This document shows, one piece after another, positions 12,186 to 61,135 of a stretch of 64,000 nucleotides of DNA. The stretch comes from Octopus vulgaris. Its lineage: Eukaryota. Where the stretch lies: NCBI GenBank assembly GCA_951406725.2, contig OX597818.1:49476001-49540000 (forward strand), given 5' to 3'. Position numbers and translations under genes: made by a program. Each line of letters starts with the position of its first letter. Position 1 is the first letter of the stretch. The notes under the pieces are model-generated. The model saw nothing but the letters and a program-made list of their open reading frames with translations. It was not told the DNA's origin and did not search any database.

Positions 12186-12778
12186 AATGCTTGTAATAAT
12201 ACTAGTAAATATAGTTAAATACTCAATAAGCTAAAATCACACTAAAATAAAATATTTAAAATGTTAAACTATTCAATTCCCCACCCCAGACCCAAGCAAA
12301 ACAAACTTTTGTGACCTTAACTTTTCAAATGCCAGCGTTTTTATTCAACTGTCCCATTACAAAAGCAGTTTTAGTGGATGTTATTTGTATATATAAAGAA
12401 ACATTGCATGTGTTGTACAAAGCTATTAAATGGTACAAATCACCTATTAATACTGGAGAGTGGTTAAACAGGCTATCAGTTGAGAAAACAAAAGGCAAAA
12501 TATTCAGGCTTAGAGACACAGGAATCCATTTTCTTATGAGAAATATTCTGATCTGAGCTAGTGTTGCTGCTATCATCTCCCAATCTTTGTTGCATTTATA
12601 GTCTTTTTCAAAGATTACAGTAGTTTATTCTATTCCTTCTTATAAGATGGTTTCTAGACAAAGTAATTTAATACAAGTACATAATTTAATTCGAATTAAT
12701 CAAAAGGATGAATATCTTGGCAAAATCTATTCATAGATTTGTCGTTATTAATATTTTAGATTAAATGTTTAAATATTT

Positions 12779-13053
12779 TTCGTTTTTGGATTTGGTTTGC
12801 AAGATTCTTTATATGAGTTCGTGTGTTGAAGCATATTCTGTTGTGTCTGGGGAGAGTCATTTTCTTTTTGTGCCTTATAATGTAACACACTCACCAGTAA
12901 AATTTCCACTGACAGAGTCAAGACTATTGAAAAGTTTGCAAGAAGCAACGAAAATTTTAGGAAAATAAAAATAAGAAATAAGAGGAAATTTTAACGGTGT
13001 GTGTGTTACATTATTAGGCAGATAAAGAAAATGACTCTCCCCAGACACAACAG
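12779..13053. mobile_element. Penelope-like non-autonomous insertion with inverted duplication
   Basis: 70-bp inverted arms 12838-12908/12984-13053. GTTTAAATATTT duplicated at 12767-12778 and 13053-13064. Confidence 0.7.
12924..12960 (+). ncRNA. Minimal hammerhead-like motif, U3-A8 variant
   Basis: CTA-TTGAAAA-GTTTGC-AAGAA-GCAAC-GAA-AATT-T-TAG. Helix I is only 3 bp. Confidence 0.45.
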
Positions 13054-14399
13054 TTTAAATATTTGAAATGATTTAATGAAATTATATGCCTACCTATTCC
13101 TCAGTCTCTATCCCCCACTCACATTAACCCTCTTGTATCCTGAAGGTACACCCTGGCATATTACCACCATCATCATCATCTCTCTTTTTCTAAGTGGGGT
13201 AGCCATGTATCTCCTTTATGGCAGGACACTTGTCCCTATCTCTCTATCATACACTTGACCCTCAATACTTGGAATAAAGCCACTTCCATCTCTCAAATCA
13301 AATGGTCTTGCTTCACACGCTACTTGGCAACATCACAGTGCTGGAGACATGAAAAAGCAGCCACTACACTCAGGAATTTGGATGCTAAATAATGAAGTTG
13401 ACGATGAATATTAAGCTTGTCTTTGGAGATAAAAAATAAATTGTTTTTTAAATTACATTTGGATAATAAAATAGAAGTACAGAAAGGCCAGAAGATCCCA
13501 AATGAAAGAAAACTGTGGAAGAGGAAGAGCATGGAAAAAAAATATGGATAGGAGTGGCGAAAGCTGAATTCAAGGTGTTGAACCTCACAAATTTTATATA
13601 CTAATATAGGCACTGGTGATGGTGCCACATAAAAAGCACCCAGTATACTCTATAAAGTGGAGATTGACACAATCAGCTGGTTTACCAGTTCCTGTGAAAA
13701 TGTCCCAACCCATGCCAACATGGAAAATGGACATTAAATGATGATGGTGATGAACAATATGCAATTTTTCAAATTTCAATATAAACAGCTTAGAATTTAC
13801 AGAAAAAGAGGAACTGTAAAGTGGCTTTATTTTTTTTAAAGCAATCTCTACATGCAACGAAAGACTTTAAAATGTTCCCTATTAACAATCTCCACCCAAC
13901 TATAAAGTTGCACTGATAAAACCTCAGTCAGTTATCAAACCTGATTTATACAAGAATACCTTCTAACACTAACTTAGACCAAATATGAAATATATTAATC
14001 CACTAACAAAAGTGGAAAATATAATTTTCTATTCATTAAAGATCAGACAATCTTATTTTTGGTTATTGAAAGACATGGATCACATCCGCACTTTGTTTAA
14101 AATTTGGTGTATTAAAACCAAAACGTAATTCTTTCAAAATAGTATTAGAGAAAGATGAAAAAAAGTGTAAAAAGCAATTTCTAGAATTCAAAATGAAAGG
14201 AAATAATTTCTAGATTATAGTTCAATGAACATGTGAAATATCATAGCAATGTGCCACAGAAATATTTCTTCAATAACTTGCCCTTTGAATTAATTTCATA
14301 TCAAATTAATTTATATTTAGAGAGACTATGGTGAAGTATAAGAAAATACAATATTTGTATTACTTAATCACAGTGCTTGACAACTAACTGTAGCTACCA

Positions 14400-14784
14400 T
14401 CTCTATATATATATATATAGACAGCAAAATGTCTGTCTGTGTGTGTGTTTGTGTATATCCTTTATACAAATCCACAATTTTTCAGTTAGAGGGCTCGCAC
14501 TTTCTATGGTCATTCAAAACCGTCCAAGGGTGGTCGTGCACATCTTTACATTTCCCTAGTCACCCCACAAAGCTATTAAAAAAATCAATAGAAGTGACTT
14601 TTTGGTGAATTTTCTATCCAAAACCCAATCAAAATGCCCGAAACTTGATACGCCAATTGAATGCCAGCTAGCTGTATGCGATTGGTCGGAAATTTGGACA
14701 GTACTTGTGAGTATGTGCGCATGCACGCAGCTGTATATGCATGCACTAGCACTATGACCCAGCGTTGCTGGGTCATAGTGCTAG
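14400..14784 (+). mobile_element. Non-autonomous Helitron
   Basis: A|TC 5' end, CTAG|T 3' end, terminal hairpin 14745-14785, no TSD. Confidence 0.8.
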
Positions 14785-17717
14785 TATTTCATAATTTTTC
14801 AAACAATTATATATTCAATTCTAACCTAAAACACTTTGTTATCTCAAGTATTTATCATAAAACAAAGTATTTTATACAATTACAGTTTTTGCAATTCTTG
14901 TGTAGAAATTAACTAAAGCTAAACTTAATTTTCTTTTACAAAGCCTAATTTAGTGTCATTGTTCTGAACCTAAACTGGTATATTTTGCACTGACTGTCCA
15001 CAATTAATAAAATAAACCACCACCAACATATTAGAGTAACTTAGCTACTGCAATTCTCTAGAGGAAGTAACCTCAATATTATTGAGGCAATAGTGAAGTA
15101 GAAAATTTAATATAGTGACTGTAATCATCATTATTTAATGTCCATTTTCAATGCTGGAATGGGTTGGCCAGATTAACAGGAACTGGTAAGGCTTGGAACT
15201 GCACCAGGCTCCATTGTTTTAGTACAATTTCTACAGCTGGATGCCCTTTCCGATGCCAACCATTTTATAGAGTGTACTGGGTGCTACATAAAAAGCTACA
15301 TGGTGCCTTGGGCAAGATCTACTGTAGCCTTACATTGATATTAATCAAAGACTTGAGTGTGAAATTTGGTAGATGAAAACTGTATGCGAGAGCACATCAG
15401 TAGGTGAAAAGTAGAAAAGGTAGACTATTGAGACCAGACACATTGTGGTTGATGGTTAAGTCCCTTCAGATTCTGAGTTTAAATCTTGCCAAGGCTAACT
15501 CTGCCTTCTTTCATACCAAAGCCAATAAAATAAATAGCAAAGCATTGAGAGAGATGTAATCCATTAAGCTAACATGACCAATGGGACAAAAACCAAAACA
15601 AGTGCAAAAAAGTAAAATGAATTATTTTCATTTTCCATATTTGATAAATTTGTCTCTGACCTGAAAAACTTTTCTTGATTATAAACAAAGATTCATAGCT
15701 AAAACTTTTACTAAATACAATACTTCAAGAGAGAAATATTTTTGAAGTGAAACATGTTGCATTTTGAACTTTGCAAATTTTGTCAATCGTTGAATTCATG
15801 CACATGCACCTGTGGCTGTGCATGTACACACACATATGCACGTGCATGTGTGCATGAGCATGCATGCATATGCTTTAACCATGTCTTTGGTTTGTGTGTG
15901 TGTATACACGAATGTGAATTTGCAACAACAACATTTGCAAATAAAATAAAGAATATGTCAACATTTTTATAACATTTATTGTTAAATGTCACACATAATA
16001 ACTATGTGATATGCAGGATATTGTTACAAATATTTCAGCTTGATAGCAACCATTAGTTGTCATTGTTGTCGTCAGCATCACCATTGTCATTTACTATTAG
16101 CATTGTCAGATTGACAATGAAGGAAAAACCATCCTTACTGACCAGATTTACGAGCAAACAACAATGATAAAAGAAAAAATGCAGATATAAAAATTACATA
16201 TTACACGAAGGGAATCAACAATCAAGATATCTAAATTACTGGTTTCTTTTGTCTCAAAACAATACTATTTTGCAGTTATATAATAAAGATAGAAACCAAC
16301 CTCAACTGACTCCTAGATCCACTATTAAGTAATACTAAACAAATGAAGAAAAGTAAATTGAACTCAATAATATAAAAAAGATATAAAATGACAAACAGAA
16401 TAGCCAACACTACGGGAAGTGATTTAGCATTACAATATCCATTACAGCTCACAAAATAAAGACAATTGGTATTTACATATGTATATATATATATTCATTA
16501 CCAAAAAAGGTGTCCTGCAAGGTGATTGCATACCAGTGGTGCTCTTTGTCTTTTCCTTGAAAAGACATTATTATACAATTTCACAAAAGCTGATTGTAGA
16601 AATGGATACTCTGAATCTAGAAATATTGCCCACAGTTTTCTGCAGATGAAATTCAACTGCAGTGACCAAGATCAAAAGCAATTGGGTCTCATTATGCAGC
16701 TTTCCACAGATGATTGAGTGACATTTGTATTCATGGAGGTGAGATGAGAAAATGCAAGCAACTATTTTGGACAAAATAACATTATATATGAGAGACCCAA
16801 TGGCCAGAAGAAGTCAAGAAATTAATAGGTCAAAAGTTTTAAAAAATACAGTCACTGCAAATGTCAACACCAATGGGGATGTAGACAAATATTCTCCACA
16901 CAAGGAAAGAGACTGGAGCTTAATTTGGTAGTAACAGAGAAACAGCGTCTTTCATAGAGAAATATCCTCAGTAACAATATTTCAGAAGTATACAAACATG
17001 AAACTAACAACTTTATAAGGATAAATCTTACCTAATATAACAATAAAAACAAAAACTAGACCAGTTCACTGAAAAGATTGTATATGAGAAATTGAAATGA
17101 AAATTGCATAACATGGAGAGAGTAAATCATACTAAAAGACTGCCATGGGCTGTCAACATGTCCCCGCTAAAAACCTTTTAAACAAAAGACAAAAGTTAAC
17201 AGCTGACAGCTGAATATAAGGTATGTAAAAATTGAAGACATTAGCCACATCATTGTGATAGGATAAGGTCCTATTTCCCAATTACATATGATGTAGTATC
17301 CATGGCAATCAGGGATAAAATAGTAAATAACCAATGAAAGACAAACAAAAATAAAGACTAATAGATCAAAAGAATATGAGAATAACCTAACAATAAAAAC
17401 AGTTATCCCATTAAAACATAAATCAGTCTTATATTGCTTTAGATCACCAGAAAAAAACAAAATACATTGATATGGAAGCCAGATGCCAAAGGACCATTAA
17501 TGCAGTAAAAAAAAAAACTATTGAAAATTTTTTTTTAAAAAAGCAGAGAGAAGATTATAAACCCTGTTTACAGCCTTATAACTTATCATTAAAATGTCAA
17601 GATACAAGTTGCTGGGAACAATTTATTGTCAAATTTAGATTCTTAGTAAAGAACAGCTCCATAATCCAAGATACATATGATCATTAAATCTAGGATGAGA
17701 CCTGCAAGACCTTAAGC

Positions 17718-17865
17718 CAGGGGTCTCCAAAATGGTCAATATTGACTCCTGGGGATAGATGGGACTACTCAAGGGGTCAATAAATGCACATCTACTTCAT
17801 TATCATTTATTTATTTTCTTGTACATGCCAGGGGGTTGATGGTCTAAAAAGTTTGCAGACTCCTG
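17718..17865. mobile_element. hAT MITE
   Basis: TIR CAGGGGTCTCCAAA/TTTGCAGACTCCTG and a perfect 8-bp TSD CCTTAAGC. Confidence 0.88.
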
Positions 17866-18210
17866 CCTTAAGCTCTAAGGATAAATCATCATGCAAATAA
17901 CAAAAAACTTTTTTTTTTGTTTTCTGCAGGTTGATCAAGCAAGCTGTTGGGGTAAAAATTAACTCTAAAACTCTAATCAGAAAATATGTATATATGTACA
18001 TTTCCTGTCTGATTATACAATTGCAACATGTATGCACACAGCTCTAACCTGCAACTTTGAACTGTCCAGCTTCCCTTCAGTATATTAACCTGACTGTTGT
18101 TACTTCTAACAATCTTTCTTCAGTCCTCCTTAATCTTCTACACACAGATGTTATCCACAATCCACTCACAATCAACCCCAAAGCATCGTGTTAAACCAGT
18201 ACTACCTTAA

Positions 18211-18388
18211 CCCTTTAGCATTTAAACTGGATATACTGGCCCAAATATTGTGTTTTATGTTCAAACAGGTCCAACCTCTTGCACATACCCTACAATGTCA
18301 TTCAAAAAGAAGACAATCACATTATTAATTCAAAACAAGGTGAATAAATAAGTATTTCATTTGAGAGAGTAATGTGATAGCTAAAAGG
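18211..18388. mobile_element. piggyBac-like MITE, second family
   Basis: TTAA|CCCTTTAGC...GCTAAAAGG|TTAA. Confidence 0.65.
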
Positions 18389-19458
18389 TTAAACAGAATT
18401 CCCCAATGGGAACATGATAATTGTCTCTTAAATAGAATGAAGATATGACCACTGCATGGAATAATATCACCATTTCTAATCTCTAATCTTGCAATTAAAC
18501 AGTTGTTACAAGCGCTAATCCTTCACAATCTCTGATGATCTTGTATACATAACTTATCAAAAGACTGCATCCCAGATCAGGAAATACTTGATCAGCTAAC
18601 TCTTACTCTTAATAAATTTTATGACTAACAGTAAAATACTGCTCTCACCATCTGCAAAGGTGTTGTTGCTGCCACACACACACACATCCTACAAAATATC
18701 CAAAAGAGGGCCATCTGTCTGATTAACTCATCAATACACCCCACTATAACATTTTATCCCAGTAAGAGCTTCTGCTCTTCTGAACTAGCTAGCTGTTCAC
18801 AAAACTTAATCCATGTCCACTAATCCCTTTTTACTACCTGTACAGTATCTCTCTCTCTTTCTTCATCTCACACCAGTCACAACACCCAATCCTTCCTTCT
18901 TAGACTCTGAAATTCCCTTTCTTCCCATGCTCTTCTGCAGATCTAGAATTACAGATGTACATAAATTGTATAAATGTTGCCATAGGAACTGCCCTTTTCA
19001 CGTGCCTGAATCATGAAAAATACAAAAAAAAAAGAGACACACACACACATACTAGAATATTGTCCAAATTAGTAAAGGACTTTCTAAAACGAAATTTTAA
19101 GAAAATATTAATTCTTGATAATGAAGAATTAAGAAATTACATCAGTGCTGAATAACAATGGTATGTAGTAATGAAAATATTTAGACAGTGAAATTACTTT
19201 ACAGATTAAAGTTTTAAGGCTTTGTTTCTTTCCAGTATTTCAATCATGGATTTGACAATCATGAAATGAACGTTTTGGTTGCTACAATAAAGACAATGTA
19301 ACTTGTACAATACTGCTTTACTGAAATTCTAGATATCATATAGGAGGACAAAAATTGCTTATTTAATAACAAATGCAAAATAAAGTTTTAAAAAACCCAG
19401 CCAAGTTAAAACATATATGAGTAAAAAGAATATCCTTAAAACCAGCAACGTTTACATT

Positions 19459-19467
19459 AAAGGATAC
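19459..19467 (-). promoter_or_regulatory. U12-type 5' splice site GTATCCTTT
   Basis: Exact minor-spliceosome donor consensus at the boundary required by the ARF6 reading frame. Confidence 0.93.
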
Positions 19468-19549
19468 TTGTTTTTCCTGCTGCATCAAGACCCAACATTA
19501 ATATCCTCATTTCCTTATTTCCAAATATCTTTGAAAATAACTTCCCCAT
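19468..19549 (-). CDS. ARF6: ARF6 coding exon 1 ([27 protein letters not shown]); exon begins at 19570 with 21 nt of 5' UTR
   Basis: Kozak gaccATGG, myristoylation Gly2, P-loop GLDAAGKT. Upstream pyrimidine tract and ccag acceptor at 19574-19571. Exon lengths 82+104+199+143=528 nt. Confidence 0.97.
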
Positions 19550-20789: not shown

Positions 20790-22528
20790 GTACATGCAAA
20801 CCATGTACAGGGATGCTGTCAGTAAGGTGAGGGTTGGTTGGTACAGTAAAGAATTCCAAGTAGGGGTAGGGGTCCACCAAGGATCAGTCCTCAACCCCTT
20901 CTTATTCATCATAAGTCCTCCAGGCAATAACAGAAGAATTCAAGACAGGATGCCCTTGGGAGCTTCTCTATGCTGATGACCTTGCTCTAATTGCTGAGTC
21001 ACTACCAGAACTAGAGGAAAAGTTTCAGGTGTGGAAGCAAGGATTATAATCAAAGGGCCTTCGGGTCAACCTAGCTAAAACCAAAGACTTAATAAGTAGG
21101 AAGGCAGACAAACAACAAATCCCTTCAGGTAGATGGCCCTGCTCAATCTGTACAAAAAGCATAGGGAGAAATTCCATAAGCTGTACCCAGTGTAAGCTAT
21201 GGACACATAGGAGATGCAGCAATATCAAAGGAAGGCTAATTGGGAAGATAGTTTTTGTATGTGGCAAATGCTCAGGAGCAATAAACACTGAAAATGTGCA
21301 GAGAACAACTTCTGTCACATTCCAGGGAGAAAAACTAGAAGTAGTTGATAGCTTCCGTTACCTAGGTGACGAAGTCAGTAGCTGGGGTGGATGCTCTGAA
21401 AGTGTAGTTGCTAGAATAAGAATTGCCTGGGCAAAGTTCAGAGAGTTCCTACTTCTGCTGGTGACAAAGGGTCTCTCGCTCAGAATAAAAGGTAGACTGT
21501 ATGATGCATGTGTACGAACAGCCATGCTACACAGCAGTGAAACATGGGCTGTGACTGCTGAGGATATGCATAAGCTTGCAAAGAATAAAGCCACTATTCT
21601 CCACTGGATGTGTAATGTCAGTATGCAGACATGACAGAGTGTAAGTACCTTGAGAGAAAAGTTGGACTTAAGAAGCATCAGATGTGGTGGGCAAGAGAGA
21701 CGACTGCACTGGTATGGTCATGTGTTGCAAATGGATGAGGACAGTTGTGGGAAAAAGTGTCACACCCTAGCAGTTGAGGAAACCTGTGGAAGAGGTAGAC
21801 CCAGGAAGACCTGGGATGAAGTGGTGAAGCACAACCTTTTTGAACATTGAGCCTCACCGAGGCAATGACTAGTGACTGAAACCTTTGGAGACATGCTGTG
21901 CTTGAGAAGACCCAACAAGCCAAGTGAGACCATAACTCGTGGCCTAAACCAGTGGTGTATAAGCAGCCCACTTATGAGTACCCTTCATTCATTGGATAAT
22001 AAACTTTGCTTGTGAAGACTTGAAGCAAATGAAATCAAAATCACTGATGTGGCTGATTAGAGTACCGCCTGATTGGCACTCACGCCAGTGAAACATTAAA
22101 AGCACCATCTGAGCATGATCATTGCCAGGGTCGCTGACTGGCTCCCATGCCAGTGGCATACGAAAAGCAACATCCGAGCATAATCGTTGCCAGTGTAGCC
22201 TTACTGGCTCCCATGCAGTTGGCACGTGAAAAACAGCATTCAAGCATGGCTGTTGCCAGTGCCACTGGACTGGCTCCTGTGCAGGTGGCATGTAAAGAAA
22301 CACCTTTTGAGTGTGGTTGTTGCCAGTACCGTCTGACTGGTCCTCATGCCAGTGGCACGTAAAAGCACCCACTACACTCTTGGAGTGGTTGGTGTTAGGA
22401 AGGGCATCCAGCTGTAGAAACATTGCCAGATCAGATTGGAGCCTGGTGCAGCCTTCAGGCTTGCCAGTCCTCAGTCAAATCGTCCAACCCATGCCAGCAT
22501 AGAAAGCAGACATTAAATGACGATGATG
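20790..22528 (+). mobile_element. 5'-truncated RTE-clade LINE (RT C-terminal half, Cys-rich insert, 3' UTR)
   Basis: GVHQGSVLNP, LLYADD (20965-20980), FRYLG and GRGRPRKTW motifs with frameshifts, (GAT)n tail. Confidence 0.93.
22062..22370 (+). repeat. ~65-bp diverged tandem repeat (about 5 units) in the RTE 3' UTR
   Basis: Units start near 22084, 22148, 22214, 22280 and 22347 (TGCCAGTGGCACGTAAAAGCAC-like). Confidence 0.85.
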
Positions 22529-23744
22529 GTTTACAATAATGCAAGAAGGGGAGATTTGAGGTTCAAAGTGAAGAATAATCTAACAATAATAATTCAATAG
22601 TAGAAGACAACTGTTTAAGTGACGGTACCTGAGTAGTATGTGACAAAGTACTTTTTTGTTCACTCATACATTACATCCTGTATTCCTGTGATTTATATCA
22701 ACACAGGCTTAGAAATATTTTTAAAATCTGACTTTCTGTTCCACCACCAAACATTTTTTTTTTTTATAACATTAAAGATTAAGGAAGAAGAGACCCCCCC
22801 CCCAAAAAAAAAACTCCCTCACTTTCATATAGTAACCACCTCCACTAATTAGCTCTTAGCTATCTACATTCAACTAAGGTGAAGTTTCATTTCAATGGCA
22901 TTTCACAGAGGCATTTAACAAAGTATATGCATGCCTTTATGCGTGATATGTAAAAAAAAAAAGTAGAAGTGTCTAAAACAAATTCAGCAGTAATGAAGAA
23001 ATATATGAACAAGATATATTTTTATTATATAATATTTACTATGTATTTATTATAACATTCCAACTAAAATCAGGTGATAAATAGCTGAATATTAAGGCAG
23101 ATGAATATTTTTAAATGAATACAGATAAATTTAGACTGCCACAAACATTAGGTATGTATAGGGTGTGATATAAATTTAGCCTGCAACAATTATGTAGGCA
23201 ACAAAATATAAAAGATTTCAGCTGAAGCTACTTCATGCGTCACATTCCTTTTACTTAGAATGAAGCTTTCAGTATGAAGAAAAGAGACTCTTATTTCACT
23301 GCAGTTATTAAAAAGGGACTATGTAAAGAGTCATTAATGAGTAATTTATAAATTAAACTGGAATTAATGAGATGGACTTTTCAGATTACTTTTGTATATT
23401 TTTAGATTACAATTGATATAAAATTCAACCTTCTACATGTTACAACTAATTATCATAAAGTTAACAGAAGATTTTGAGAAAGTAATACTCTTGGTGTTAT
23501 ATTTTCTCATCTAGAGTTGCTTTTCATTTCCTTTTAATTACAAAACAGAACAATTTCCCCTCTATTTTGATAAGTGAAAATCTCAAAGAAAGATTTATTA
23601 CAAAACTTGCCAGAGCCAACAATTGAGTGCAAAATTTGGAACCAGATAGATTATAAGTATGATCTTGCCTCATGTATTAAAATGAAAACAAAGAAATAGT
23701 TTAACTTACAATTTACATAAGTATAGCTATGGTTATTGTCAGAG

Positions 23745-26567: not shown

Positions 26568-26937
26568 TATCCCTCTCAAGCTTCAGTGATTCCATATTAC
26601 ATGAAAGTCAAAGAGAAAATACATTTTGTGCTCTGGAACTCCATGTTAACACAAGATTTTCATGAGTGCTATTGAGGGTGGGTGCCTTCACTACTGCTTA
26701 AGCCAAAATTGTTTCACAATATTCTTGAATTCTTGATATGTTTTTAATGCTATTGTGTAATCCCAGGTCAGCTTTAATAGAGCAGTCTTTTTGACATGCA
26801 AGTCGCTGGTGAGATGCAATGTATAGATTTGACTTCCTTGCTGCCCATCCAGTCTGTATCTGCATACTTGTTAAGGGTGCAACAGTTGCTGTTATGCTCA
26901 CTTCTGTTGGTGATGTGCTCCCTAGCACAATGCTTGA

Positions 26938-27590
26938 GACATATGAAGCTACTGGGCATTTGAGAGAATCTAAATCTCGTGAGATCTTAGTGTTTATTGT
27001 TCCTGCACATCTGTCACATACAAAGACAACTTTATCTGTTAATCTACCTGTGATTCCACTGCACCTTTTATGTGTCCATAGTTTACACAGGGTGCAGCGA
27101 ATGGAATTTCTTCCAACTCTTTTCCTACATATTGAGTAAGCCCATTTACCTGACAGAAAGAGTTTTATCTTCTTTCTTACTAACAACAACTTTAGTCTTT
27201 GCTAGGTTAACTTTAAGGCCCTTTGATTTTCGGATTTGGTTCTATACCTGAAATTTCTTCTCCAGTTCTGCTAAAGATTCTACAATAAGAACAAGGTCAT
27301 CAGCATATAGCAATTCCTCTGTTATGGCCTGGAGGACTACAATGAATAAGAGTGGGCTAGCCCTGGTGAACCCCTACCTGTATGCTAAATTCATCACTGT
27401 ATTCATGGCTAACAGCACCACTGTACATGGCTCATACAGCTCTAACAAGCCACTCCTTTATTCCTACCTTCCTTAGAGACCACTATATAACAGAGCAGGG
27501 AACTGTCGAAAATGTTCTCCAGGTTGACAAAGGCTAAGTACAATGGCTTACTTTTGGTCAAGTACTTTCCTGCCACTATCTCACTAGGAA
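26938..27590 (-). mobile_element. RTE RT fragment
   Basis: Homologous to 52540-53170. CRKRVGRNSIRCTLCKLWTHKRC in ORF 26698-27189. Confidence 0.88.
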
Positions 27591-34004: not shown

Positions 34005-34255
34005 TGCAGGTGGCACATAAAAAGCACCATTTGAGCGTGGCCATTGCCAGTACCGCCTGACTGGCCCTCGTGCTGGTGGCACGTAAAAGCACTCACTACA
34101 CTCTCGGAGTGGTTGGCGTTAGGAAGGGCATCCAGCTGTAGAAACTCTGCCAGATCAGATTGAAGTTTGGTGCAGCCATCTAGTTCGCCAGACCTCAATC
34201 AAATCGTCCAACCCATGCTAGCATGGAAAGCGGACGTTAAACGATGATGATGATA
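34005..34255 (+). mobile_element. RTE 3' end
   Basis: One to two tandem units plus the (GAT)n tail. Confidence 0.88.
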
Positions 34256-35336
34256 TATAGAGAGAGAGAGAGCGAGAGATATAGTTATATAAATAAAAAC
34301 AAATATCACTTCTGAGGGGTGTAAGTTATTTCAATAATCACATTTTATTTTGAAAATAAATTATGGCAGGCAGTCCACCAACTTATAAACAAATGTGAAT
34401 ACATACATATGCCATAAAAGTCACTTTAAAAATTACACTTCTAAATAAAGGTGGTGGGATGGGGGTACGACTTTAGGTTCTTGTAAAAATTTCCATATAA
34501 TTTATCAATTACGTTCAGAAATTTTTTAAAAATAACAAAAGCATTTTTAACCCATACAAAAGCTAAAAATTGATTTGTACCAAACGAAAAAAGAAAAACC
34601 TTTATATGGAAAATTACAACAATGTAAGCTCTATATTTACTTGTTCTTTTCTCAGTCATTTTTTTTTTTAAAGATATTTGTGAACTATTTCTATCATCTT
34701 ATTAATCTGAAATATAGCTATATTATTAAATTCATTGGTCAAATTCTTGTGCTGAGTGTACATATCTATATATTTATATATATATATATATAATTCAAAT
34801 TTACAGAAAACAAAAGACATAGACAGTTGTAGGAACAACAAACAGATGTATTAGTTTAACACTTGGGAAAAAATTGAAAAGTCTTTTATGTTTTGAGCCT
34901 ATGCTCTTCAACAGAAAGGATTAAGCGGGAAAAAATGGAGAGAGAAAAATTGTGCAGAGGTCAACAGCCCAACATGGCGAGATGACCAGAAAAAAGAGGT
35001 TGAATGAAAGGGAGATAATAATAATTATAGTAATGATGATCCCAACGAACTAAGGTGCATAAGCATGTGTGTGAGTGTGCATGTGTGAAAGGGGGTAAGT
35101 GAATGTAACATTGTGTGTGTATAACAGTTGTGTGCACAAGTGTGATCAAATAATGTGCATGTGTATAGTGTATATTTGTGGGCGAAAGTTATCTTTGTCT
35201 ATTATGTTGCTTGTGTTTATGCGAGTTGTGTGTATATATTGTCTGTGTTCAGGTATTATGTGATTGTATGCGTGAGTGTGCATGATGGTATGTAGCATGT
35301 GTACTGAGTTAAACAGTATGTGTGGCAGCTCTACTT

Positions 35337-35653: not shown

Positions 35654-36305
35654 ATTAACAATCAAGGAACGGCCATAATAGGCCATTCACCCACTAGAAA
35701 TAACAGCCAAAAGCTTTAACCGCAAAATAACGTCAATTCCCACTAGGCCGCTGGAGGCAAAAGAATTCTACAAAATTTTTTTTTGCCACCCTATATTGAT
35801 TAATTATGAATTTTCTGGTTAATTCCGTAATGGAATCGGCGGCTTATATTTATTTGCTGCCGATAAATTTGGCGCGAGTGCGACGATTTGAAAATTTTAG
35901 GTCAGATATTGACGAGGTAGCAATGAGAATGCCTCGTGAAAAATATCTGTTCCGGTTTGGCTATTTCTTACTGATGAATCTAAGGGCCTATGGTAGATTG
36001 GCTTGATTTAATTTAATCAGGTTAGTTTTCCATTAAACAGAAGATGAAACGGTGCATCGTCTAAGAAATTACAGGGTAAATGTTTTTCAATTTTCTCCTG
36101 GTTTACGGAATTGACGTTATTTTGCGGTTAAAGCTTTTGGCTGTTATTTCTAGTGGGTGAATGGCCTATTATGGCCGTTCCTTGATTGTTAATGTTGAAC
36201 TTAAAAATGGTTTATGACTATTTAATTTTTTCCCACTAGGCCGCTGGAGGCAAAAGAATTCTACAAAATTTTTTTTTTTTTTGCCACCCTATATTGATTA
36301 ATTAT
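35654..36305 (+). mobile_element. Retrozyme/Penelope-like non-coding element with direct terminal repeats and an inverted segment
   Basis: Direct repeats 35737-35807/36230-36305 (period 493), perfect 87-bp inverted repeat 35654-35740/36107-36193, (TA)n on both sides. Confidence 0.85.
35963..36069 (+). ncRNA. Type I hammerhead ribozyme, canonical core, long helix II insert
   Basis: ATTTCTTA-CTGATGA-ATCT...AGAT-GAA-ACGGTGCATCGT-C-TAAGAAAT. 8-bp helix I, predicted cut after GUC 36061. Confidence 0.82.
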
Positions 36306-41954: not shown

Positions 41955-42303
41955 TTACGGAGATGTACTTGCATAGCGAGTGACTTGATCTGAGATCGTG
42001 TGCCGGAATGAAAACAATTGTAGCATGGAAGGTGTAGCATGGAAGAAACACACAAAAACTGTTACATTCACTTCAACATTTAAATTTGTCAAAATATTTT
42101 TGGCGCTTTGAGACCGCGACCTGTTCACTGACAAAACTTCGTGCTGCATCTCTAATTCGTGCTGGATGCAGCACGAAGTTTTGTTAGTGAACAGGTCGCA
42201 GTCTCAAAGCAACGAAAATATTTTGACAAATTAAAAATTTAAATGCTGAAGTGAATCTAACGGTTTTTGTGTGTTTCTTAAATGGCTTATAAACACCTTC
42301 CAC
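41955..42303. mobile_element. Penelope-like insertion with inverted duplication
   Basis: Inverted arms about 42045-42150/42165-42280. The same family occurs uninverted at 60925-61135. Confidence 0.8.
42180..42230 (+). ncRNA. Minimal type I hammerhead, G3-C8 variant
   Basis: TTTGTTA-GTGAACA-G-GTCGC-AGTCTCAAA-GCAAC-GAA-AATATT-T-TGACAAA. Confidence 0.62.
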
Positions 42304-46699: not shown

Positions 46700-46920
46700 G
46701 TACTGGCAATGACCTTGCTCGAGCCCCCGTGCCGGTGGCATGTAAAAAGCACCCACTACACTCTCGGAGTGGTTGGCGTTGGGAAGGGCATCTAGCTGTA
46801 GAAACTCTGCCAAATCAAGATTGGAGCCTGGTGCAGCCATCTGGTTCGCCAGCCCTCAGTCAAAATCGTCCAACCCATGCTAGCATGGTGAGCGGACGCT
46901 AAACGATGATGATGATAATA
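46700..46920 (+). mobile_element. RTE 3' end
   Basis: Same tail family. Confidence 0.88.
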
Positions 46921-47470: not shown

Positions 47471-47474
47471 TACT

Positions 47475-47863: not shown

Positions 47864-48136
47864 ATAATTAAACTTTTATCAAATTTCTCAGTGGTCAATT
47901 TTCAAAAGAAATATAAATATTACCTTAAAATAAAATTAAAGCAAATTTCTCATTTTTAATTTGCAATAAATACTATTAATAATAATAATAATACTCATCC
48001 AAAATCTCTTATGTTAACAATCAGTTTATCTCATTTTTATTCTCTTTTCTCCTCTCTATGATGTAAAGTGTTACTGAATAAATCAATTGATAAACCAACT
48101 AACCAACATTTACACTGGATATTATTATATAGGGAG

Positions 48137-48355: not shown

Positions 48356-48361
48356 TATAAG

Positions 48362-48551
48362 CTGTTGCCAGCCTCGCCTGGCATGTAAAAAGCACCCACT
48401 ACACTCACGGAGTGGTTGGTGTTAGGAAGGGCATCCAGCTGTAGAAACACTGCCAGATCAGACTGGAGCCTGGTGCAGCCTTCTGGCTTCGAATCATCCA
48501 ACCCATGCTAGCATGGAAAACAGACATTAAACGATGACAATGATGATGATA
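48362..48551 (+). mobile_element. RTE 3' end
   Basis: Same tail family. Confidence 0.85.
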
Positions 48552-52334: not shown

Positions 52335-54499
52335 CCAGGAGGGCACCATCCCCAATGACTGGTGTAGTACTATTATAGTTAGCTGCTACAAGGGTAAAGG
52401 TGATGTTAGATAGAAACAACTACAGAGGCATTATATTGCTAGACCAAACCATGAAAATTACTGAGAGGGTTATAGCTCGACTGATTAAAATAGAATTAAA
52501 TTAGATGAGATGCAGTTTGGTTCTGAACTTGGGAAAAGTACTACAGATGTCATCTCCCTAGTGAGACAGCTGCAGGAAAAGTACTTGGCCAAAAGTAAGA
52601 CATTGTACTTCGTTGACCTGGAAAAAGCTTCCGACAGAGTTCCCCACTCTGTTATATGGTGGTCTCTAAGGAAGTTAGGAGCAGAGGAATGGCTTGTTGG
52701 AGCTATACAAGTCATGTACAGTAGTGCTGTCAGTAACATGAGAGTTGGTCGTGAATAGTGATGAATTTAGCATACAGGTAGGGGTTCACAAGGGCTCAGT
52801 TCTCAGCCCACTCTTATTCATTATGGTCCTCCAGGTCACAACAGAGGAATTCACAACTGGGTGCCTGTGGGAACTGCTATATGCTGATGATCTTGCTCTC
52901 ATTGCAGAATCTTTAGCAGAACTGGAGAAGAAATTCCAGGTATGGAAACAAATCCTGGAATCAAAGGGCCTTAAAGTTAACCTGGCAAAGACCAAAGTTG
53001 TTGTTAGTAAGAAAGAAGATAAAACTCTCTTTCCGTCAGGTAAATCGCTCTGCTCAGTATGTAGGAAAGGAGTTGGAAGAAATAGTTGTCTTTGTATGTG
53101 ACAGATGTACAAGAACAATAATCACTAAGAGCATATGGGTTTTAGGTTCTCTCAAATGCCCAGGAGGCTCTCTTGAGGTTGTAGATAGTTTCTGTTACCT
53201 AGGTGACCAAATGAGCAACGGTGGGAAATGTTCTGAAAATATTGTTTCTAGAATAAGAATTGGATGGAAGTTCAGAGAGCTATTACTTCTGCTGGCAACA
53301 AAAGGACTCTCTCAGAGTGAAAGGTAGACTATATGATGCTTGTGTGTGAACAGCTATACTCCATGGTAGAAAGGTACGGGCTCTGAATGCAGAAGACTAG
53401 AGAGAAATGAAGGTAGTAGGCGCCATCAGTGCACATGTACAACAAAGTTCAAATGTATTGAGAGAAAAGTTGGGCATAAGAGGAATCAAATGTAGCCTGA
53501 TTTGGATATGTGATGCATTTGAATTAAGACAGCTGCATAAAGAAGTACCGATCACTGAAAGTATATGGCACCCACGAAAGTGGGAGACCCAGGAAGAAGT
53601 GTGTTGAAGTGGTAAGGACTGATCTCAGGATGTTGTGCCTTATGAATGAAATGACAATGGACCGAGATGTCTGGCGATATTAAGTTCTTGAGAAGACCCA
53701 CCCACGTCGGCGAAACTGAGTTCTAGAAGTGTTGTGTGTCCCACCCACACTTAAGAAAATTTCTTATACACACTATCATAACAAACCAAACTACCTCTCT
53801 TCTCTTCCTCACATTTCCACTTCAAGCACTAGGCTTGCCTCCCACTCCCCAATCCTGTCCTCTTGACCCTGTACCACTGTATCATTGCTCTCCACTAGCT
53901 TCCAACCTGTGTGTTCCACCCACGCCCTGTCTCACTGTTTCATTGCATATCCCCAGCACTTAGCCACCATCTCTATTCTGCTGTCTCCCACTCTCTCTCT
54001 CTCTCCTTCTCCTGCACTTCCCTCAGGTTGAGTAACCACATACTTCTTTTGTGGCAGAATACCTGTTTCTGTCTTCATTCCTCATCTCTCTCTCCAGCCA
54101 GGTAACCGTGTACCTCCTCTACAGCAAGACACCTGTTTCTGTATCTCTGTGTCACTATAACCTTTCATCATCTGACACAAGATCACCTCCTCCAATGCCC
54201 TTTCCCCTCTCAATCAAGTTTTTGTTTTTGTCATGAAAGTACTCGGTGACTTTGTCAGTGCAGATGCATTCAGCTGTAAAATCATTGCCAAAACTGACCT
54301 TGTCTGTGCTTGTGCCATGTAACAAGCACTAAGTCCACTCTGCTGAGTGGCTGATGTTAGGAAGTGCATCCAGTTGTAAAAATCCTGCCAAAACAGTTAC
54401 AGAAGTATGTTGCAGGCTTCTGCCTGGCTGGCGCTTGCCAAACCATCCCACCCATGTCAGCATGGAAGGCAGATGTTAAACGATCATGATGACGACGAC
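52335..54499 (+). mobile_element. 5'-truncated RTE LINE (RT domain, pyrimidine-rich 3' UTR, tail)
   Basis: NYRGI, MQFG, FVDLEKA, GVHKGSVLSPLLF and LLYADD motifs, frameshifted. Confidence 0.93.
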
Positions 54500-54789: not shown

Positions 54790-57360
54790 CCATTTCCTGT
54801 AGGGTGCCAAACTTCACAGTTGACACAATCAACAATGCTATAACAAAATGTCTGGAGAGATTTTAGAAGCTAGAGCAGAGGTGAGTAGATATGTGTTATG
54901 TACAAAGAGTAAGACGGGAGAGTGTCTTAGCCAGATTTCTCACAGGCAAGTAACACAAGGATAAAGTCTTTTGGCTTGGTAGCAGCACTAGATTTGGTAG
55001 AGTATGCCAATTATTGGCAGAGACATAGGTATAATTAAGGTAAAGCAGGTGACAGAATAATTAGACAAAAACTAATCATTAGTAATCTTACAGCAACAGT
55101 GATCTCTGCATATGCACTACAATCAAGACTGACAGATAAGTGGACTGTTTCTCTGAGGTTCTGGCAGACTCCCTCAATAGACAGTGATCTCATTATCATG
55201 GTTGGTGACTTTAATGGACATGTTGAGCAACACCATGATGACTATTCTAATGTACATCGAAGATATGGTTACAGAGTAGAGAATGAAGAGGGAACGAAAC
55301 TCTTGAAATCTGGTGTAAGTTGCATATACTTCATGCTCACTAGAAGACAGGATAGGCAACTGGTTATAAATACTTTATTCTTTCCAACAGAAGCAGTTTC
55401 AGAGGCATAAAACAGTCTGAAGAAAGATATAGAAGTTGAAAGATGCTCTGGCAAGACATGTGATGAGAAGGAAGAGATAAACTCATAACACAGAAAACAA
55501 TATTGGTTAGCTATAAAACAAAATCTGTTGATTGAGTAAGGTTATAAACAGACAGACGGCATCAAGATAGTGGAATATAGTTGAGTTACAAAAACCAAGA
55601 AACAAGCCAAAAAAGATTAGGAGAAAGGAGGGAATATGGAAAACATTAGGTAGGGAAGAGAAAGTGAAAGAAGTCAGCCAACATTCCGTAATGAAAAGGA
55701 AGAGGTGTTGCAGATTGCAAAGTGCATCAGGGTGAATCAAAACAATGGGGAAAGGTGTGTACTGAATTATTGTAATGCACTTGTGAGGCTGTTAAGAGAC
55801 TTGAAAAAGTAACTAAAAGAGATTGCTGGACAAAGAACTGTATGGGAAACGTTGGAATTGCTCCAAATAGACCCAATAATGGGACCAGTTACTGAGATTG
55901 AGAATTATAAGGTTGGAAGCACTATTAAGAATATCAATGAAACTGGACCATCAGGGATAGTTGCCAAGATGCTGAAAATGTCTGGCAAACCAGAACATGT
56001 GCCAGTCATTCACGTAATCAATCAGATAGTGCAGTAAATCCAATGACCAGCAAAGCAGTTTCATAATCAACCACTACTAATCATCATCGTTTAACATTCA
56101 TTTTCCATGCTGGCACAGGTTAGACAGTTTGGCAGGAGCTGGAGAGCTGCACCAGGCTCCAATTGCCTGTTTTGATACGGTTTCTCAGGCTGGATGTCCT
56201 TCTTAAAGCCAACCACTTTACAGAGTGTACTGGGTGCTTTTTATGTGGAACTTACACGAGAGATTTTTACTTGGCAATCGCATGGGTGCTTTTCATATAG
56301 CACCAGTAACTAAGTAAAAATAAATACTTTAAAGGCATCAAATTGATAACCAAGTAATAAAAGTAACACAACTGATTATGGTGAGTATTCATTTAGGTTT
56401 GTGCTAGGTTGGGGAACTATTGATGGCACATTAATGAGAAAACTATAGAAGTTCTTAGCTACAAGCAAGTCACAGTATATCTGTCAACTTGGAGAAGGCC
56501 TTTGATAAGGTACTAACTACATTCAGTTGCCTGGAAGTCTTTGAGATGGAAGGTAGAGATGAACAGATATTGAAAGTCATGCAAGCTGTCAACAAAGTAA
56601 GATTTAGCAATGAATACAACAAGGAATTTAGTACGCAGGTGGGTGTACATGAGAGTTTAACACTTGTTTTTTAATTACAAATTCTCTAGGTAATAACTGA
56701 GAAGTTTAAGACTGGCTGTGAATGAGAATTTTTGTATGACTTTTGTATGACTAGTTCTTACAGTTGAATCCTTTGATGATTTAGAGAAGAAATTCTAAGT
56801 GTAGGAGCAAAGCCTATAAATTGCATCTTTAAGAAATAGGAAGTTATCTATCTAATACTATGCAAAGAATACAGCCATACACTCCTTGAATTTCTTTTAT
56901 TTATATATTTCAAATTAAAAACAAAATTCTTTTGTATTAGAAATGACAAGCCTCAAAGTAAACATAGTGAACACAAGTTTTAGTTAGCAGGAAAGAAAAT
57001 AAGACTTCAGGTTTTCTGGAATGTAGCTATGCAGAAAAGGAGTAGATGGAAATTCTATAAGGTCAACTCAATGAAAACAGAGTACACAAGAGATGCAGCG
57101 ATCCACTGCATCAGTGGCAGACTGACAGAGATAGATTTTGTATGTAACAGACAAGCGTGAGTAAGAGTTTCCATGAAATGAATGTGATGCATATAGATGG
57201 TAGTTTGGTAAAGAAGTACCAAGCACTTTATGTGGAAGGATGTAGAAGAGGAATCTCATGAAGGAAATCACAAAGAGCTGCAACAAGTATTGAGACACAG
57301 TGCAAGAGAAGACCTCTCCAACCTATGCAGACATGGAAAACTAAATGCTAAAATAACAAG
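54790..57360 (+). mobile_element. Old near-full-length RTE remnant (endonuclease to tail), interrupted
   Basis: ISAYALQ and GDFNGHV, then GPSGIVAKML, LEKAFDKV and QVGVHE in order. Related endonuclease fragment at about 49600-50030. Confidence 0.75.
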
Positions 57361-57500
57361 AAGTTTGTTGCATAACTAATACAAAAGATTTTTTTTTTCA
57401 ATTTGAAATATATATAAACATAGAAATTCAAAAGGTGTATGGTTGTATTCTTTGCATAGTGTTAGATAGCTAACTTCATCTTTCTGAAAGATGCAATTTA
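56817..57500. repeat. ~125-bp inverted repeat pair (56817-56940 / 57377-57500)
   Basis: Arms align by eye. Confidence 0.85.
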
Positions 57501-59177
57501 CTTGTTGTCCACAAACTTGAATATTTATCTTACACTCAGATTGTAGCAGCCATCATTTTAAGTCTTTTGACTTCCTGTAGTATATCTAATGCAAATGACA
57601 TTGGCTAAGTGTATCTCTCCAAGTTATAACCAAGGGAGAATTTGAATACAGTACTTGTACTCTAACAATGCTTGCTTTAGTGTGAACTGTACCATCGTGC
57701 AGAACCTCTTTGTAGTTAAATCAAAGAGAATGTCAAAACTAACAATTACAATGCTAGAGGTGAAATATTAAGTGCTGATCCTTCAGTTTGTAAATGAAAT
57801 CCTATAACTAGCCAACAAGGGAACCTCTATGTGTTTGTTGAGATGCGAGAAGAACAGCAGCTAAACCTTCCAATTACACCTCACCATCTTAAAAAGGGAC
57901 ATGTGGCAATGTAGTTGGAGATATACTACATCTGAAATAATAGACAAGGTCACAACTGAAAATTCAATGATCATTGCTGTGTTGGAGTTAACATGGAGGG
58001 TTAACCAACAACCCTGTCAACCCTGCCAGTTACAACCAGTTCACCAAAGAAAAACAAGCCATTTAAGGTTTCTCGTTTACCAAATCTTGAAATTGGCATT
58101 TTTCAGTTCCAAATAAAATGAAACCTCAAAAATAGAATTACAGAGTTGAAATTTAAAATGACATTACTAGTTGCGAGTCATAATCTCTAAGATTTAATAT
58201 AAACCACAGAAATTTAACCAGTAGAAAAAGCTAGCTAAGTTTAGAAAGGAGCCATAATACTTTGTCAGGATGGCAACAGAAGATAACAAATCAAGATAAA
58301 AGATAAAAACAGGTGAAGAGAAGATAAAGATGAAGTAATGCAGAAGAAAATGGAAAGAACAGTTACGATATGAGGAAACCATGAAAATGGGAATTGTATA
58401 AACCTAACGAACCTTCATTAAGATGGGAAAATAGAAAACTATATCAGTGCTGTAGCAGAGTGTTCCTTTAACATCCCTAGGCCATATAAGCTTACTCAAA
58501 CAGAAATTGAGATAAAAGAGAAAAAAGGCTTTCAGAAGTCTGTCATAAACAATTGTTATGTTAAAGAAAGCATGTGCAGTGTACAGGTATCACACAAACA
58601 ATTAGTGGATATACAGCTTACAAGAGTCACAGCTGTGCAATAATGGCCTAGAGTCAAACCTTAAATGGAGATTTGTGAATAGCTTGATGTGACACATTTA
58701 CTAGATTATAGAGACTAAGAGACCATTTAAGCTTAGCAGTAATTTTAGGAAGAGGGTATATGGATTAAGAACTTCTGATAAAGATAAAACAGGACAGCAG
58801 CTGAGGGTCAGTGGTAAGAAAATTAGATCTTAATGTATCATTTAAATATATTTTTATTTTATGCTTTAAGCATTCTAGTAATATAAATTAAGCATAATGT
58901 CAAATTAATCAACAAAAACCAAAGTTAAATGAATCCACTCCATGAATTATGAACTCAACAGTAAAGCGCTAACCTATATATCAATGTAACTAACTACCCA
59001 AATTTATAAGACAGGCAAGCATGCAACTTCAGTTGCTCTGTGCAGCTTAAAGTTTCATAGGCTTATAGAAAGAAGCCATTGCATCAGGTATCTCTCTCTT
59101 TCTTATATATATACACACACATCATCATCGTTTAAAGTCCACCTTCCAGGCTGGCAATATATATATATATTATAAGG

Positions 59178-59275
59178 AAAAGGTTGGCAGCAACTTAGAA
59201 GTTTCAACTTGCTCGCCTTTGTCAGAGCATCTGATAAAGGTGAGCAAACTGAAACTTCAGAGTTGTTAGCCTTTT
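59178..59275. repeat. Palindrome of two decayed minimal hammerhead motifs
   Basis: Plus strand CTGATAA-A-GGT-GAGCAA-ACT-GAAACTTC; minus strand CTGACAA-A-GGC-GAGCAA-GTT-GAAACTTC. Confidence 0.65.
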
Positions 59276-59365
59276 ATTTGTAAAACTTAAAGCTGTACTC
59301 TACAAAAAAAAAATCCACCAGTTTAATGTAAAAACATTTTTAACACTTCCCATAAACACAAACAT

Positions 59366-59426
<61 letters not shown>

Positions 59427-59460
59427 CGGTGACCAGTGAATAGATTTCACTGTAAATATA

Positions 59461-59602
59461 TATATTTGCGAAGGCTTGGCAGGTATCTCAACTAGCAGGA
59501 CTTGCTACTCTGGACTGATGATGGGCAAGACCTAGAAACATGCATGTCTTCAGGTTGCTAGTCCTAGCTGGTGGGGATGCTTGCCTCCCCTTCGCAAATA
59601 TA
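59461..59602 (+). ncRNA. Type I hammerhead ribozyme at the tip of a ~55-bp rod
   Basis: TCTGGA-CTGATGA-TGGG-CAAGA-CCTA-GAA-ACATGCATGT-C-TTCAGG. Helix I extends to TATATTTGCGAAGG/CCTTCGCAAATATA. Predicted cut after 59548. Confidence 0.88.
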
Positions 59603-60924
59603 AGGACGCAGGAAATGTGTCAAAGCCGACAGGAAGCATCGATGCTTCCTAGGGCTAAATAGTGGTGGTGTAATTCCCTTTATGGGACTGACACGTTATG
59701 TTGACAGTATACAACCACTATATATATATATGAGGAAAACTGAAATCTCATATAACAAATTAAAAAACTTTTTTGAGAAGTTTGCTTCCCAACCACATGG
59801 TTCTGGATTCAGCCTGAGTGGCATCTTGGCCAAATGTCTTCTACTATAACCCCCAGACTGACAAAAACTTTGTGAGAGGATTTGGTAGATGGAAACTGAA
59901 GGAAGATTATCTTGAAACCACATGGTCGGGTGACCAAACAAGTTAACCACACAGCTATGTCTGCCCCATATATTAAAAGATTAAAGGAAAATGCTATAAA
60001 AGCATCAATACAGAATCACAACCAATTGACAATTTACAATTTAGATGTCTGAAAATTGCATGTGGTTGGTTTCCCTTTGCAGCGCTGTGGCATCACTGAT
60101 TGGAGCTGACCCAATTCATCTAAAACGATTGCTGACGCAAGTGCTACTAAGTTACAGTACATCAGCTCACTAGTAATAGATTTTCGTGCTAGCGCAGAAA
60201 ACGGACGTTAAACGATGATGAATCCATGAGGTACTTACCATTCAATCAGCTATAGAATATATACCAACTAAATTTGAATTTATAGAATAAATCCTCCCAT
60301 AAAGCTGACATCTAACATACTCTTTTGTAGTACCCACGAAAGAAATTTCATAGTCATCATAGCACTACAAAAAAAAAATGTCCCTACAGAGCAGTAAATA
60401 TTATCATTTCTTTTGTTAGTAAATTCAACAATAATAGCTCTCTTCTCTCAGAAATGAGACAACCATATTTCACAAACATCTTTAACCTTTATCAACATGA
60501 ATAATTTATATAGAGCAATGTGTGGGTCAACTATTAAACGTATTTATAAATATACCAATGAAAGACCTATTTAAAGCTTCCCAATTCTATACACAATCAA
60601 AATAATAAACCAGTTCAACTTCAGGCATGAAGAAGGAGTTAACGATTGAAGAGGGAAAGAGAATTAAAGTATTAGTTTCTGGCTCTTATATAATTGAGAT
60701 AAGTAAATCAATAAATAAAAACATACAAATGTGCATACACATACGTGTACACACACACAGTGACGTATTATTTTACATGACACAAAACAAATTTATCATC
60801 AAGACTAGGGGGCATGTACAGCAACTGTTGTATATTAACTCAAGCAATTAAACTCATCCTAAGAGAGCCTCTTCATAAGCTATATTCAGCTGAGACAAAG
60901 ATAAAAATGTGTGTGTAATATATA

Positions 60925-61135
60925 TATTACAGAGATGTACTTGCATAGCAAGTGACCTGATCTGAGATTGTGCGCTGGAATGAAAACAATTGCAGCGTGG
61001 AAGGTGTTTATAAAGCTATTTAAGAAACACACAAAAACCGTTAGATTCACTTCAACATTTAAATTTAATTTGCCAAAATATTTTTGTTGCTTTGAGAACA
61101 CGACCTGTTCACTGACAAAATTCCGTGCCGCAGCT
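60925..61135 (-). mobile_element. Second copy of the G3-C8 hammerhead-bearing repeat (core decayed)
   Basis: Homologous to 41955-42150, with GAAA mutated to AAAA. Confidence 0.8.

Follow-up and report, generated by a model that had tools for sequence, protein, structure and literature searches.

Type I hammerhead repeats in an Octopus vulgaris window read as ends of Penelope-like elements and as tandem retrozymes

In a window of 64,000 nucleotides from Octopus vulgaris (assembly GCA_951406725.2, contig OX597818.1, positions 49,476,001 to 49,540,000), seven insertions from six repeat families bear type I hammerhead ribozyme (HHR) motifs, which are intact at 12.9, 36.0, 42.2 and 59.5 kb and decayed at 34.9, 59.2 and 61.0 kb. 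The reading we favor, with a probability of about 0.82, is that the insertions at 12.8, 34.9 and 42/61 kb are end fragments of Penelope-like elements (PLEs), that those at 35.7 and 59.5 kb are retrozymes likely copied by the same enzymes, and that all are predicted to fold into type I HHRs. The first-pass annotation of the window had described about six such elements, all of them as non-coding retroelements. Four do carry intact motifs, the remaining motifs being decayed, and the non-coding description may suit the elements at 35.7 and 59.5 kb, which behave as tandem retrozymes, but not those at 12.8, 34.9 and 42/61 kb, which appear to be the ends of coding PLEs.

The window is repeat-rich and has a GC content of 34%. 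A descriptor scan of it recovered type I HHRs with a palindromic helix III at 12927 (U3-A8), 42187 (G3-C8) and 59515 (C3-G8), three motifs where 60 shuffles, made block by block with dinucleotide content preserved, gave a summed mean of 0.23; equality with shuffled sequence, which the first-pass annotation had put forward as a refutation, was not seen. The descriptor allowed a helix II gap of at most 45 nt and thereby passed over the motif at 35.97 kb, which was read by hand. All four palindromic helix III motifs reported from the letters alone are present on the plus strand (AAUU at 12927, AAUAUU at 42187, ACAUGCAUGU at 59515 and ACGGUGCAUCGU at 35971). The three cores that had been listed, CUGAUGA, GUGAACA and UUGAAAA, also held up, but the core at 34.9 kb, CUGUUGA, was missing from that list. 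A three-helix junction with an open helix I and the core N3UGAN N8A / GAAA / UH is found in the window copies of families F12, F35, F42 and F59b and in the consensus of F59a; the motif is carried by family consensuses and not just by single copies. An Rfam scan of the window gave 28 matches at E<=5, none of them a hammerhead, and its hairpin-like microRNA matches lay below the gathering score. A plus-strand UUGAAAA at 34874 received no hammerhead score in the descriptor scan and was rejected.

Additionally, we scanned an evenly spaced 600 kb sample (60 x 10 kb) of the genome, which spans 2.8 Gb. Motifs with A at position 6 comprised 14 with a C-G pair between core positions 3 and 8, seven of them from one array, six with U-A, two of which resemble chance, and one with G-C, each class averaging 0.12 in eight shuffles; the sole non-paired class was U-C, with two weak matches. 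Motifs with a Watson-Crick core therefore number 21 against ~0.4 by shuffle, which bears out the earlier proposal of a dense PLE and retrozyme hammerhead population. We conclude that the six repeat families are hammerheads of the PLE/retrozyme type and that such hammerheads are dense in the octopus genome.

Each window element is a dispersed repeat. First-look candidate copies, which are lower bounds, number at least 3090 for F42, 2789 for F12, 1538 for F35, 742 for F59b, 3665 for F34 and 21 for F59a. Rough counts of insertions in the 600 kb sample are six for F42, eight for F12 (including cross-matches to sister tails), ten for F34 and one each for F35 and F59b, and they extrapolate to genome totals of ~28,000 F42 (from six matches) and ~47,000 F34 (from ten). 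Among copies drawn by similarity search, and hence non-randomly, the core is UUGAAAA in 36/39 copies of F12 and GUGAACA in 98/112 copies of F42, with GUGAAGA in 12/112. Long-form older F42 copies cluster on one contig, C16, which accounts for 25 of the first 40 rows listed and from which the query itself was taken.

Judged by the sequence that adjoins their longer copies, three of the six families (F12, F34 and F42) are short ends of protein-coding PLEs. The clearest case is F42, represented in the window by a back-to-back insertion of Nematis-like PLE end fragments at 41957..42303, with a minus-strand arm that has the long end (41957-42152) and a plus-strand arm that has the short end (42165-42303). 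The plus arm bears a type I G3-C8 HHR at 42180..42230, with the core GUGAACA at 42187-42193, a 7-bp helix I, helix III AAUAUU and a predicted cut after 42223. A second F42 copy, solo and with the long end, lies on the minus strand at 60929..61135 (G3-C8 core at 61112-61106); G12 is lost in this copy, in the minus arm at 42.1 kb and in the 34.9 kb copy of F34. Longer F42 copies continue through a CA/TA-rich untranslated region (UTR) into a GIY-YIG frame (Pfam PF01541), and the order of parts is a long open reading frame (ORF) with reverse transcriptase (RT) motifs followed by GIY-YIG, the CA/TA-rich 3' UTR, the HHR and a start codon. A genome search with the F42 GIY-YIG domain gave 150 scored matches, many of them equal in score, with open frames of up to 1025 aa. 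Fifteen of the 20 fetched endonuclease loci have the G3-C8 F42 HHR downstream on the same strand, one has it in part and four are without it; across the 13 youngest endonuclease loci the HHR is identical. The 1025-aa frame holds both YVDD and GIY-YIG; Pfam RVT_1 gave no match to it, and its homologues are labelled RT. At four loci (L372, L373, L392 and L396) the HHR and/or the tail discussed below continue into the N-terminus of the ORF, the start codon lying ~55 nt past the site of predicted cleavage; the two 3' end points of the family fall within the first ~30 codons.

F12 has a comparable arrangement. Its window insertion (12778..13053, with a ~12-bp target duplication) consists of back-to-back Nematis-like PLE end fragments, the plus arm at 12908-13053 having the short end and the minus arm at 12778-12910 the long one. 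The U3-A8 type I HHR occupies 12924..12960 on the plus strand, with the core UUGAAAA at 12927-12933, a 3-bp helix I, helix III AAUU and a predicted cut after 12957. In 3/5 extended loci, F12 lies downstream of a homologous, broken endonuclease. A third sister family from outside the window, N3, has many frames of 1310-1312 aa, a 4.6-kb tandem and a C3-G8 core; its protein is 54% identical to that of F42 over 814 aa, and the N-terminal codons at the tail are homologous. Proteins of the three sister families share 44-62% identity in their aligned parts, and both F42 and F12 show pseudo-long-terminal-repeat (pLTR) or partial tandem copies, an inverted 5'-truncated copy and a tail at one end. By their compact CxxxC-xx-C linker and YIGET motif, compared by eye, F42, F12 and N3 resemble Nematis elements. 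A very young Nematis-like PLE with many open frames of 1310-1312 aa and an A9C HHR core was observed at L390 and L391 (contigs C19 and C15), and is a candidate for an active helper element.

The F34 fragment at 34791..35018 is on the minus strand and has an HHR-shaped motif at ~34918-34883 with the core CUGUUGA (A6U); the family core is CUGUNGA, with U at position 6. A broken homologous RT/GIY-YIG frame lies upstream, and its long linker, judged by eye, makes the F34 partner resemble Neptune elements. Two end points were seen for F34, with only one inverted pair in the sample. Another PLE, represented by an RT fragment beside L008 and used as a first seed, was rejected as a partner: at 30 short and eight long loci it had no same-strand link to the six repeats, the exceptions being the seed locus itself and L292, where a single split copy of F42 was present. 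Another decayed PLE of Neptune-like type (RT PF00078; L201-L230, L291-L297) has ends that match no HHR family described here.

The 3-8 pair was examined in an alignment of 11 HHRs, in which it is U-A in four, C-G in three, G-C in three and otherwise in one; helix II of the same alignment has two compensatory pairs, and 95.5% of cells are paired, compared with at most 59% when the alignment is slid. The 11 rows are related, so they represent three events or states rather than eleven. Since the third sister, N3, has C3-G8, the covariation lies among homologues. Published hammerhead work has the 3-8 pair forming in the active conformation; a pair that has switched between C-G, U-A and G-C among sisters and yet remained Watson-Crick suggests that the active-state fold is, or at least once was, under selection. 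The 3-8 covariation noticed at first is therefore real (U-A, C-G and G-C), but is informative only among homologous sisters, one of which lies outside the window. A second U3-A8 HHR family with UUGACAA and UUGAUAA cores and canonical helix sizes, apparently unrelated, was observed at L243:7454-8350 and L269:9750-10000.

Inverted partial duplications, earlier attributed to most of the elements, are present at four of the seven window insertions (12.8, 35.7, 42.0 and 59.2). Inverted pairs have exactly one long 3' end in 31/31 cases for F42, 23/25 for F12 (whose reference sequence stops at the long end) and 7/7 for F35. In PLEs, a tail has been described that is confined to one end (Craig et al. 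2021, PMC8557442). This tail corresponds to the sequence bounded by two RT start sites within the element, both strands of the target are cut, and the protein is predicted to be a dimer (Frangieh et al. 2024, PMC11167929). From the combination of one long and one short end with the published tail we infer that an inverted insertion is a single two-ended event, and from the same structure that F35 uses PLE enzymes in trans.

The opposite boundary of F42 is also sharp. About 23 of 30 copies chosen on their 3' part end, by eye, within ~10 nt of a common 5' boundary ~20 nt before helix I. Short copies (n=43) have G at -1 in 36, A at -2 in 30 and G at -3 in 20, and the long form has C/T at -3, where the short copies show the enriched G. 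A fold-back origin of this 5' GAG was rejected, as positions -4 to -6 mismatch the 3' end. A similarly sharp 5' boundary was looked for in F12 and not found. A cap-templated G is known from L1 and Alu, and we read the F42 GAG as run-off to a capped RNA start.

By their repeat organization, F35 and F59b are tandem non-LTR (long terminal repeat) retrozymes, built of short tandem units of 491 nt and 355 nt, respectively, with one type I HHR each. The young F35 insertion in the window (35654..36305) lies in (TA)n and has a plus arm at 35737-36305 (unit positions 169-491, then 1-237) and a minus arm at 35654-35740 (unit positions 46-132). Its C3-G8 HHR (35963..36069, plus strand) has the core CUGAUGA at 35971-35977, a helix II arm of 68 nt that includes a long hairpin, the 12-nt self-complementary helix III ACGGUGCAUCGU at 36049-36060 and a predicted cut after 36061. 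F59b is present as most of one unit (59414..59723, plus strand) with an intact C3-G8 HHR, whose core CUGAUGA is at 59515-59521, whose helix III is ACAUGCAUGU and whose predicted cut falls after 59548. No ORF of at least 100 aa is found over the window copies of either family. F35 copies are ~99% identical and form head-to-tail arrays, each of the 40 scored places being 100% identical over a stretch of 181 nt, and at least eight units standing in a row at one site; the arrays are often back-to-back and sited in (TA)n. Among sequencing runs that hold F35, none is recorded as RNA, and 14 are RNA by guess only. Units differ by 0.46 within insertions and 1.84 between them (21 units, six insertions), and an older F35 copy (n=1) has core changes confined to positions 7 and 17, which are free to vary. 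Arm 5' ends coincide with the predicted cut site in 0/17 cases, which implies either a circular template or a multimer that had not been cut. In folding predictions, F35 and F59b dimers pair through the double-hammerhead helix III and are more stable than two monomers by 10.7 and 9.1 kcal/mol; the predicted F35 monomer traps the core in an inactive fold, and the dimer forms a double hammerhead via the 12-nt helix III. Self-cleavage seems likely for F35 and F59b.

The remaining family, F59a, is an old palindromic insertion at 59170..59291, whose two arms meet at the 5' strand of helix I. Its copies are palindromes centred on helix I, with a consensus core CUGA(U/C)GA and helix III ACUUCGAAGU, from which the window copy has decayed to CUGAUAA (C3·A8) at 59231 on the plus strand. 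Other HHR-bearing repeats were observed at L231:2097-4768, a tandem retrozyme of ~355-nt period with a canonical core, helix III ACCGGU and seven motifs arranged back-to-back, and at L233:4895-5950, where a ~58-nt helix II arm contains a splice-donor-like CAG|GTAAG.

Taken together, these features suggest the following scheme. A dimer of the PLE protein would nick AT-rich DNA on both of its strands, with reverse transcription beginning at two internal sites, those bounding the tail, so that each inverted pair would have one long and one short end. The F42 RNA would begin ~20 nt upstream of helix I, and run-off to this nearby RNA 5' end could generate tens of thousands of solo and back-to-back copies of 150-210 bp. 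A palindromic helix III may pair two motifs into a double hammerhead that would cut tandem RNA to units; F35 units would then be ligated to circles and reverse-transcribed round and round into arrays.

Several results weigh against this scheme, or against active ribozymes within it. Autonomous partners of F35, F59b and F59a were not found among the loci examined, nor was an intact start-to-stop F42 ORF, and the end asymmetry of F59b is less clean than that of the other families (~5/9 pairs). Predicted dimers of F42, F12 and F34 do not pair via helix III, and the folds of their window copies are no more stable than those of shuffled sequence (z of +0.27, +0.39 and -0.61). Broken cores are common: G3·G8 occurs in 12/112 F42 copies, ten of which are long-form, C9 in 5/7 N3-type cores, including the youngest, and U6 in 38/40 F34-type cores, the otherwise invariant A6 being kept in the other five families. 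A single 3-8 mismatch abolishes cleavage by a PLE HHR, and PAc, a Poseidon element, inserts in vitro without cleavage (PMC11167929). As cores with G3·G8, A6U and A9C have spread too, catalysis may be relaxed, and self-cleavage in the coding families is uncertain.

A different role for the fold in coding PLEs accordingly has to be weighed, namely that it has been retained in the 5' UTR to bind protein, to position the RT or to serve translation, with cutting weak, protein-assisted or dispensable. We give this account somewhat less than even odds. The broken cores favor it, as does the finding that 0/30 F42 copies start at the predicted cut site, which means that the copied RNA was uncut. PAc cleavage, moreover, needed protein, was unnecessary for insertion and left no reads ending at the site (PMC11167929), and type I HHRs in viral 5' UTRs have been reported to help translation. 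On the other hand, a 3-8 pair that stayed Watson-Crick through two changes most simply reflects selection for cutting, and broken copies could be mobilised in trans. The G8 copies, in addition, lie among C8 copies in an endonuclease tree and look derived, with weak support; this tree holds 23/25 loci (L337 and L386 are missing), kept matched pieces of >280 nt, and includes a label, L348, that possibly belongs to an adjacent insertion. The sharp F42 5' boundary could also reflect splicing to a first exon of 2-4 nt instead of a start site with a cap-templated G. In the long form, an ACTAAC that resembles a branch point and a pyrimidine tract are present, and the boundary itself coincides with a YAG (CAG in the old copies, TAG in the young); a Penelope intron is published to end at helix I. 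We nevertheless regard splicing as the unlikely option, because inspection by eye of the L361 and L298 3' UTRs revealed no convincing donor for GAG|ATG and shared sequence ends at position -3/-4. The boundary sequence TYAGAT is also initiator-like, and splice and initiator uses can coexist.

F35 arrays might instead have arisen without RNA circles, either because existing arrays were transcribed into multimers that stayed uncleaved or because the DNA itself was duplicated in tandem. Uncut multimers account equally well for cDNAs that run through the cut site, and with a mean of 0.92 differences between opposite arms (13 pairs), an insertion may have drawn on more than one template. Yet F35 arrays stop at the same two positions (~132 and 237) and are dispersed in (TA)n, which requires retrotransposition, and retrozyme circles have been demonstrated in coral, mussel and axolotl (Cervera and de la Pena 2020, PMC7229834); on balance an origin without circles seems doubtful. 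Finally, the motifs could be chance hairpins in AT-rich, palindrome-rich repeats. Looser descriptors do match ~1.6 times per shuffled window, an AT-rich A3-U8 match at 47998 (minus strand) was set aside as just such a case, and the F12 window copy with its 3-bp helix I is weak by itself. The excess of Watson-Crick cores in the 600 kb sample, the presence of the motif in family consensuses and the compensatory changes across sister families refute chance at the family level, and we assign it next to no weight.

Much of this biology has precedents. PLE hammerheads, retrozymes and natural U3-A8 cores are already known: Cervera and de la Pena (2014, PMC4209133) described hammerheads in PLEs, the way they act as dimers and, in Schistosoma Cercyon PLEs, a family with U3-A8. 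The minimal type I HHRs that those authors found in pLTRs of endonuclease-containing (EN+) PLEs share with ours an extra nucleotide between 9 and 10.1, G10.1-C11.1, a short palindromic helix III and an occurrence mostly as solo or opposite-strand copies. The octopus differs in having three sister families with three different 3-8 pairs; the portion of that text consulted does not mention G3-C8, A6U or A9C cores, and its searchable supplement has no octopus. With the Nematis and Neptune clades (Craig et al. 2021, PMC8557442) the octopus PLEs share a C-terminal GIY-YIG, a cysteine linker, partial tandems, an inverted 5'-truncated copy, a tail at one end and (TA)n targets. Compared by eye and not by tree, F42, F12 and N3 share the compact linker of the Nematis rows in Fig. 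S2 of that paper, and the linker of the F34 partner is long, as in Neptune. Tails are longer in octopus (~57 nt in F42 and F12, ~105 nt in F35) than the 30-40 bp described there, and the two octopus entries examined in that paper, out of four mentions, are Naiads. PAc (Frangieh et al. 2024, PMC11167929) likewise has two RT start sites inside the 5' end of the ORF that define its tail, and an HHR that adjoins the start codon; the F42 HHR, unlike that of PAc, is wholly upstream of its start codon.

Metazoan non-LTR retrozymes (PMC7229834; Li et al. 2026, 10.64898/2026.07.22.740005) are non-coding and, like F35 and F59b, low-GC tandem units with one type I HHR each, and a PLE origin of retrozymes is put forward in the 2026 preprint. 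The 355 nt of F59b fall within the known size range; F35, at 491 nt and with a 68-nt helix II arm, is longer. F35 arrays differ further in being back-to-back with the two-ended PLE signature, and the word 'tail' is absent from the preprint text examined. Regarding core variants, natural U3-A8 and A6C forms with lowered activity have been reported (Perreault et al. 2011, PMC3088659; Naghdi et al. 2020, PMC7151607), and the body text of these two papers, figures aside, holds no G3-C8 or A6U strings in the parts consulted. An engineered C3G/G8C double mutant of the PAc HHR was partly active (PMC11167929); the G3-C8 pair that was engineered there is a family consensus in F42. Full-text literature, as distinct from Repbase and Dfam, yielded only engineered uses of G3-C8 in the portions searched, and nothing was found in octopus hammerhead literature, to the same extent, on the families described here; one further review, PMC8495972, contains the G3-C8 terms. 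We provisionally consider G3-C8 a previously unreported natural core.

PLE hammerheads cleave poorly in vitro and were dispensable for insertion in the sole reconstituted system. The octopus genome provides a matched set of naturally occurring variants, sited on homologous elements that were active recently, with C3-G8, U3-A8 and G3-C8 cores as well as broken G3·G8, A6U and A9C ones, and the insertion structure links retrozymes to PLE enzymes. As a joint proposal, which we put forward tentatively, three sister Nematis-like PLEs would constitute a natural C-G/U-A/G-C series, of which the G-C member would be the first natural high-copy G3-C8 HHR; the young retrozyme with a long helix II and a two-start PLE tail would be direct genomic evidence of insertion by a PLE dimer; and solo HHRs would be complete cap-to-tail cDNAs and not random truncations. 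The results also suggest that descriptors fixed on CUGANGA and a short helix II would overlook tens of thousands of motifs in one genome.

Other features of the window include fragments of a non-LTR retrotransposon RT (YADD; 21050-21634, 26698-27201 and 52742-53327), presumably RTE-like, which are the source of three other CUGAUGA matches. A repeat of ~240 bp that resembles a short interspersed element and ends in (GAT)n has at least nine copies in the window (3681-3912, 9508-9680, 22295-22533, 34019-34257, 46743-46917, 48388-48545 and others). An ARF6-like gene with at least four exons (~19.5, 11.4, 5.5 and 3.3 kb) occupies ~3190-19530 on the minus strand; the F12 element lies within an intron of this gene, and its HHR is antisense to it.

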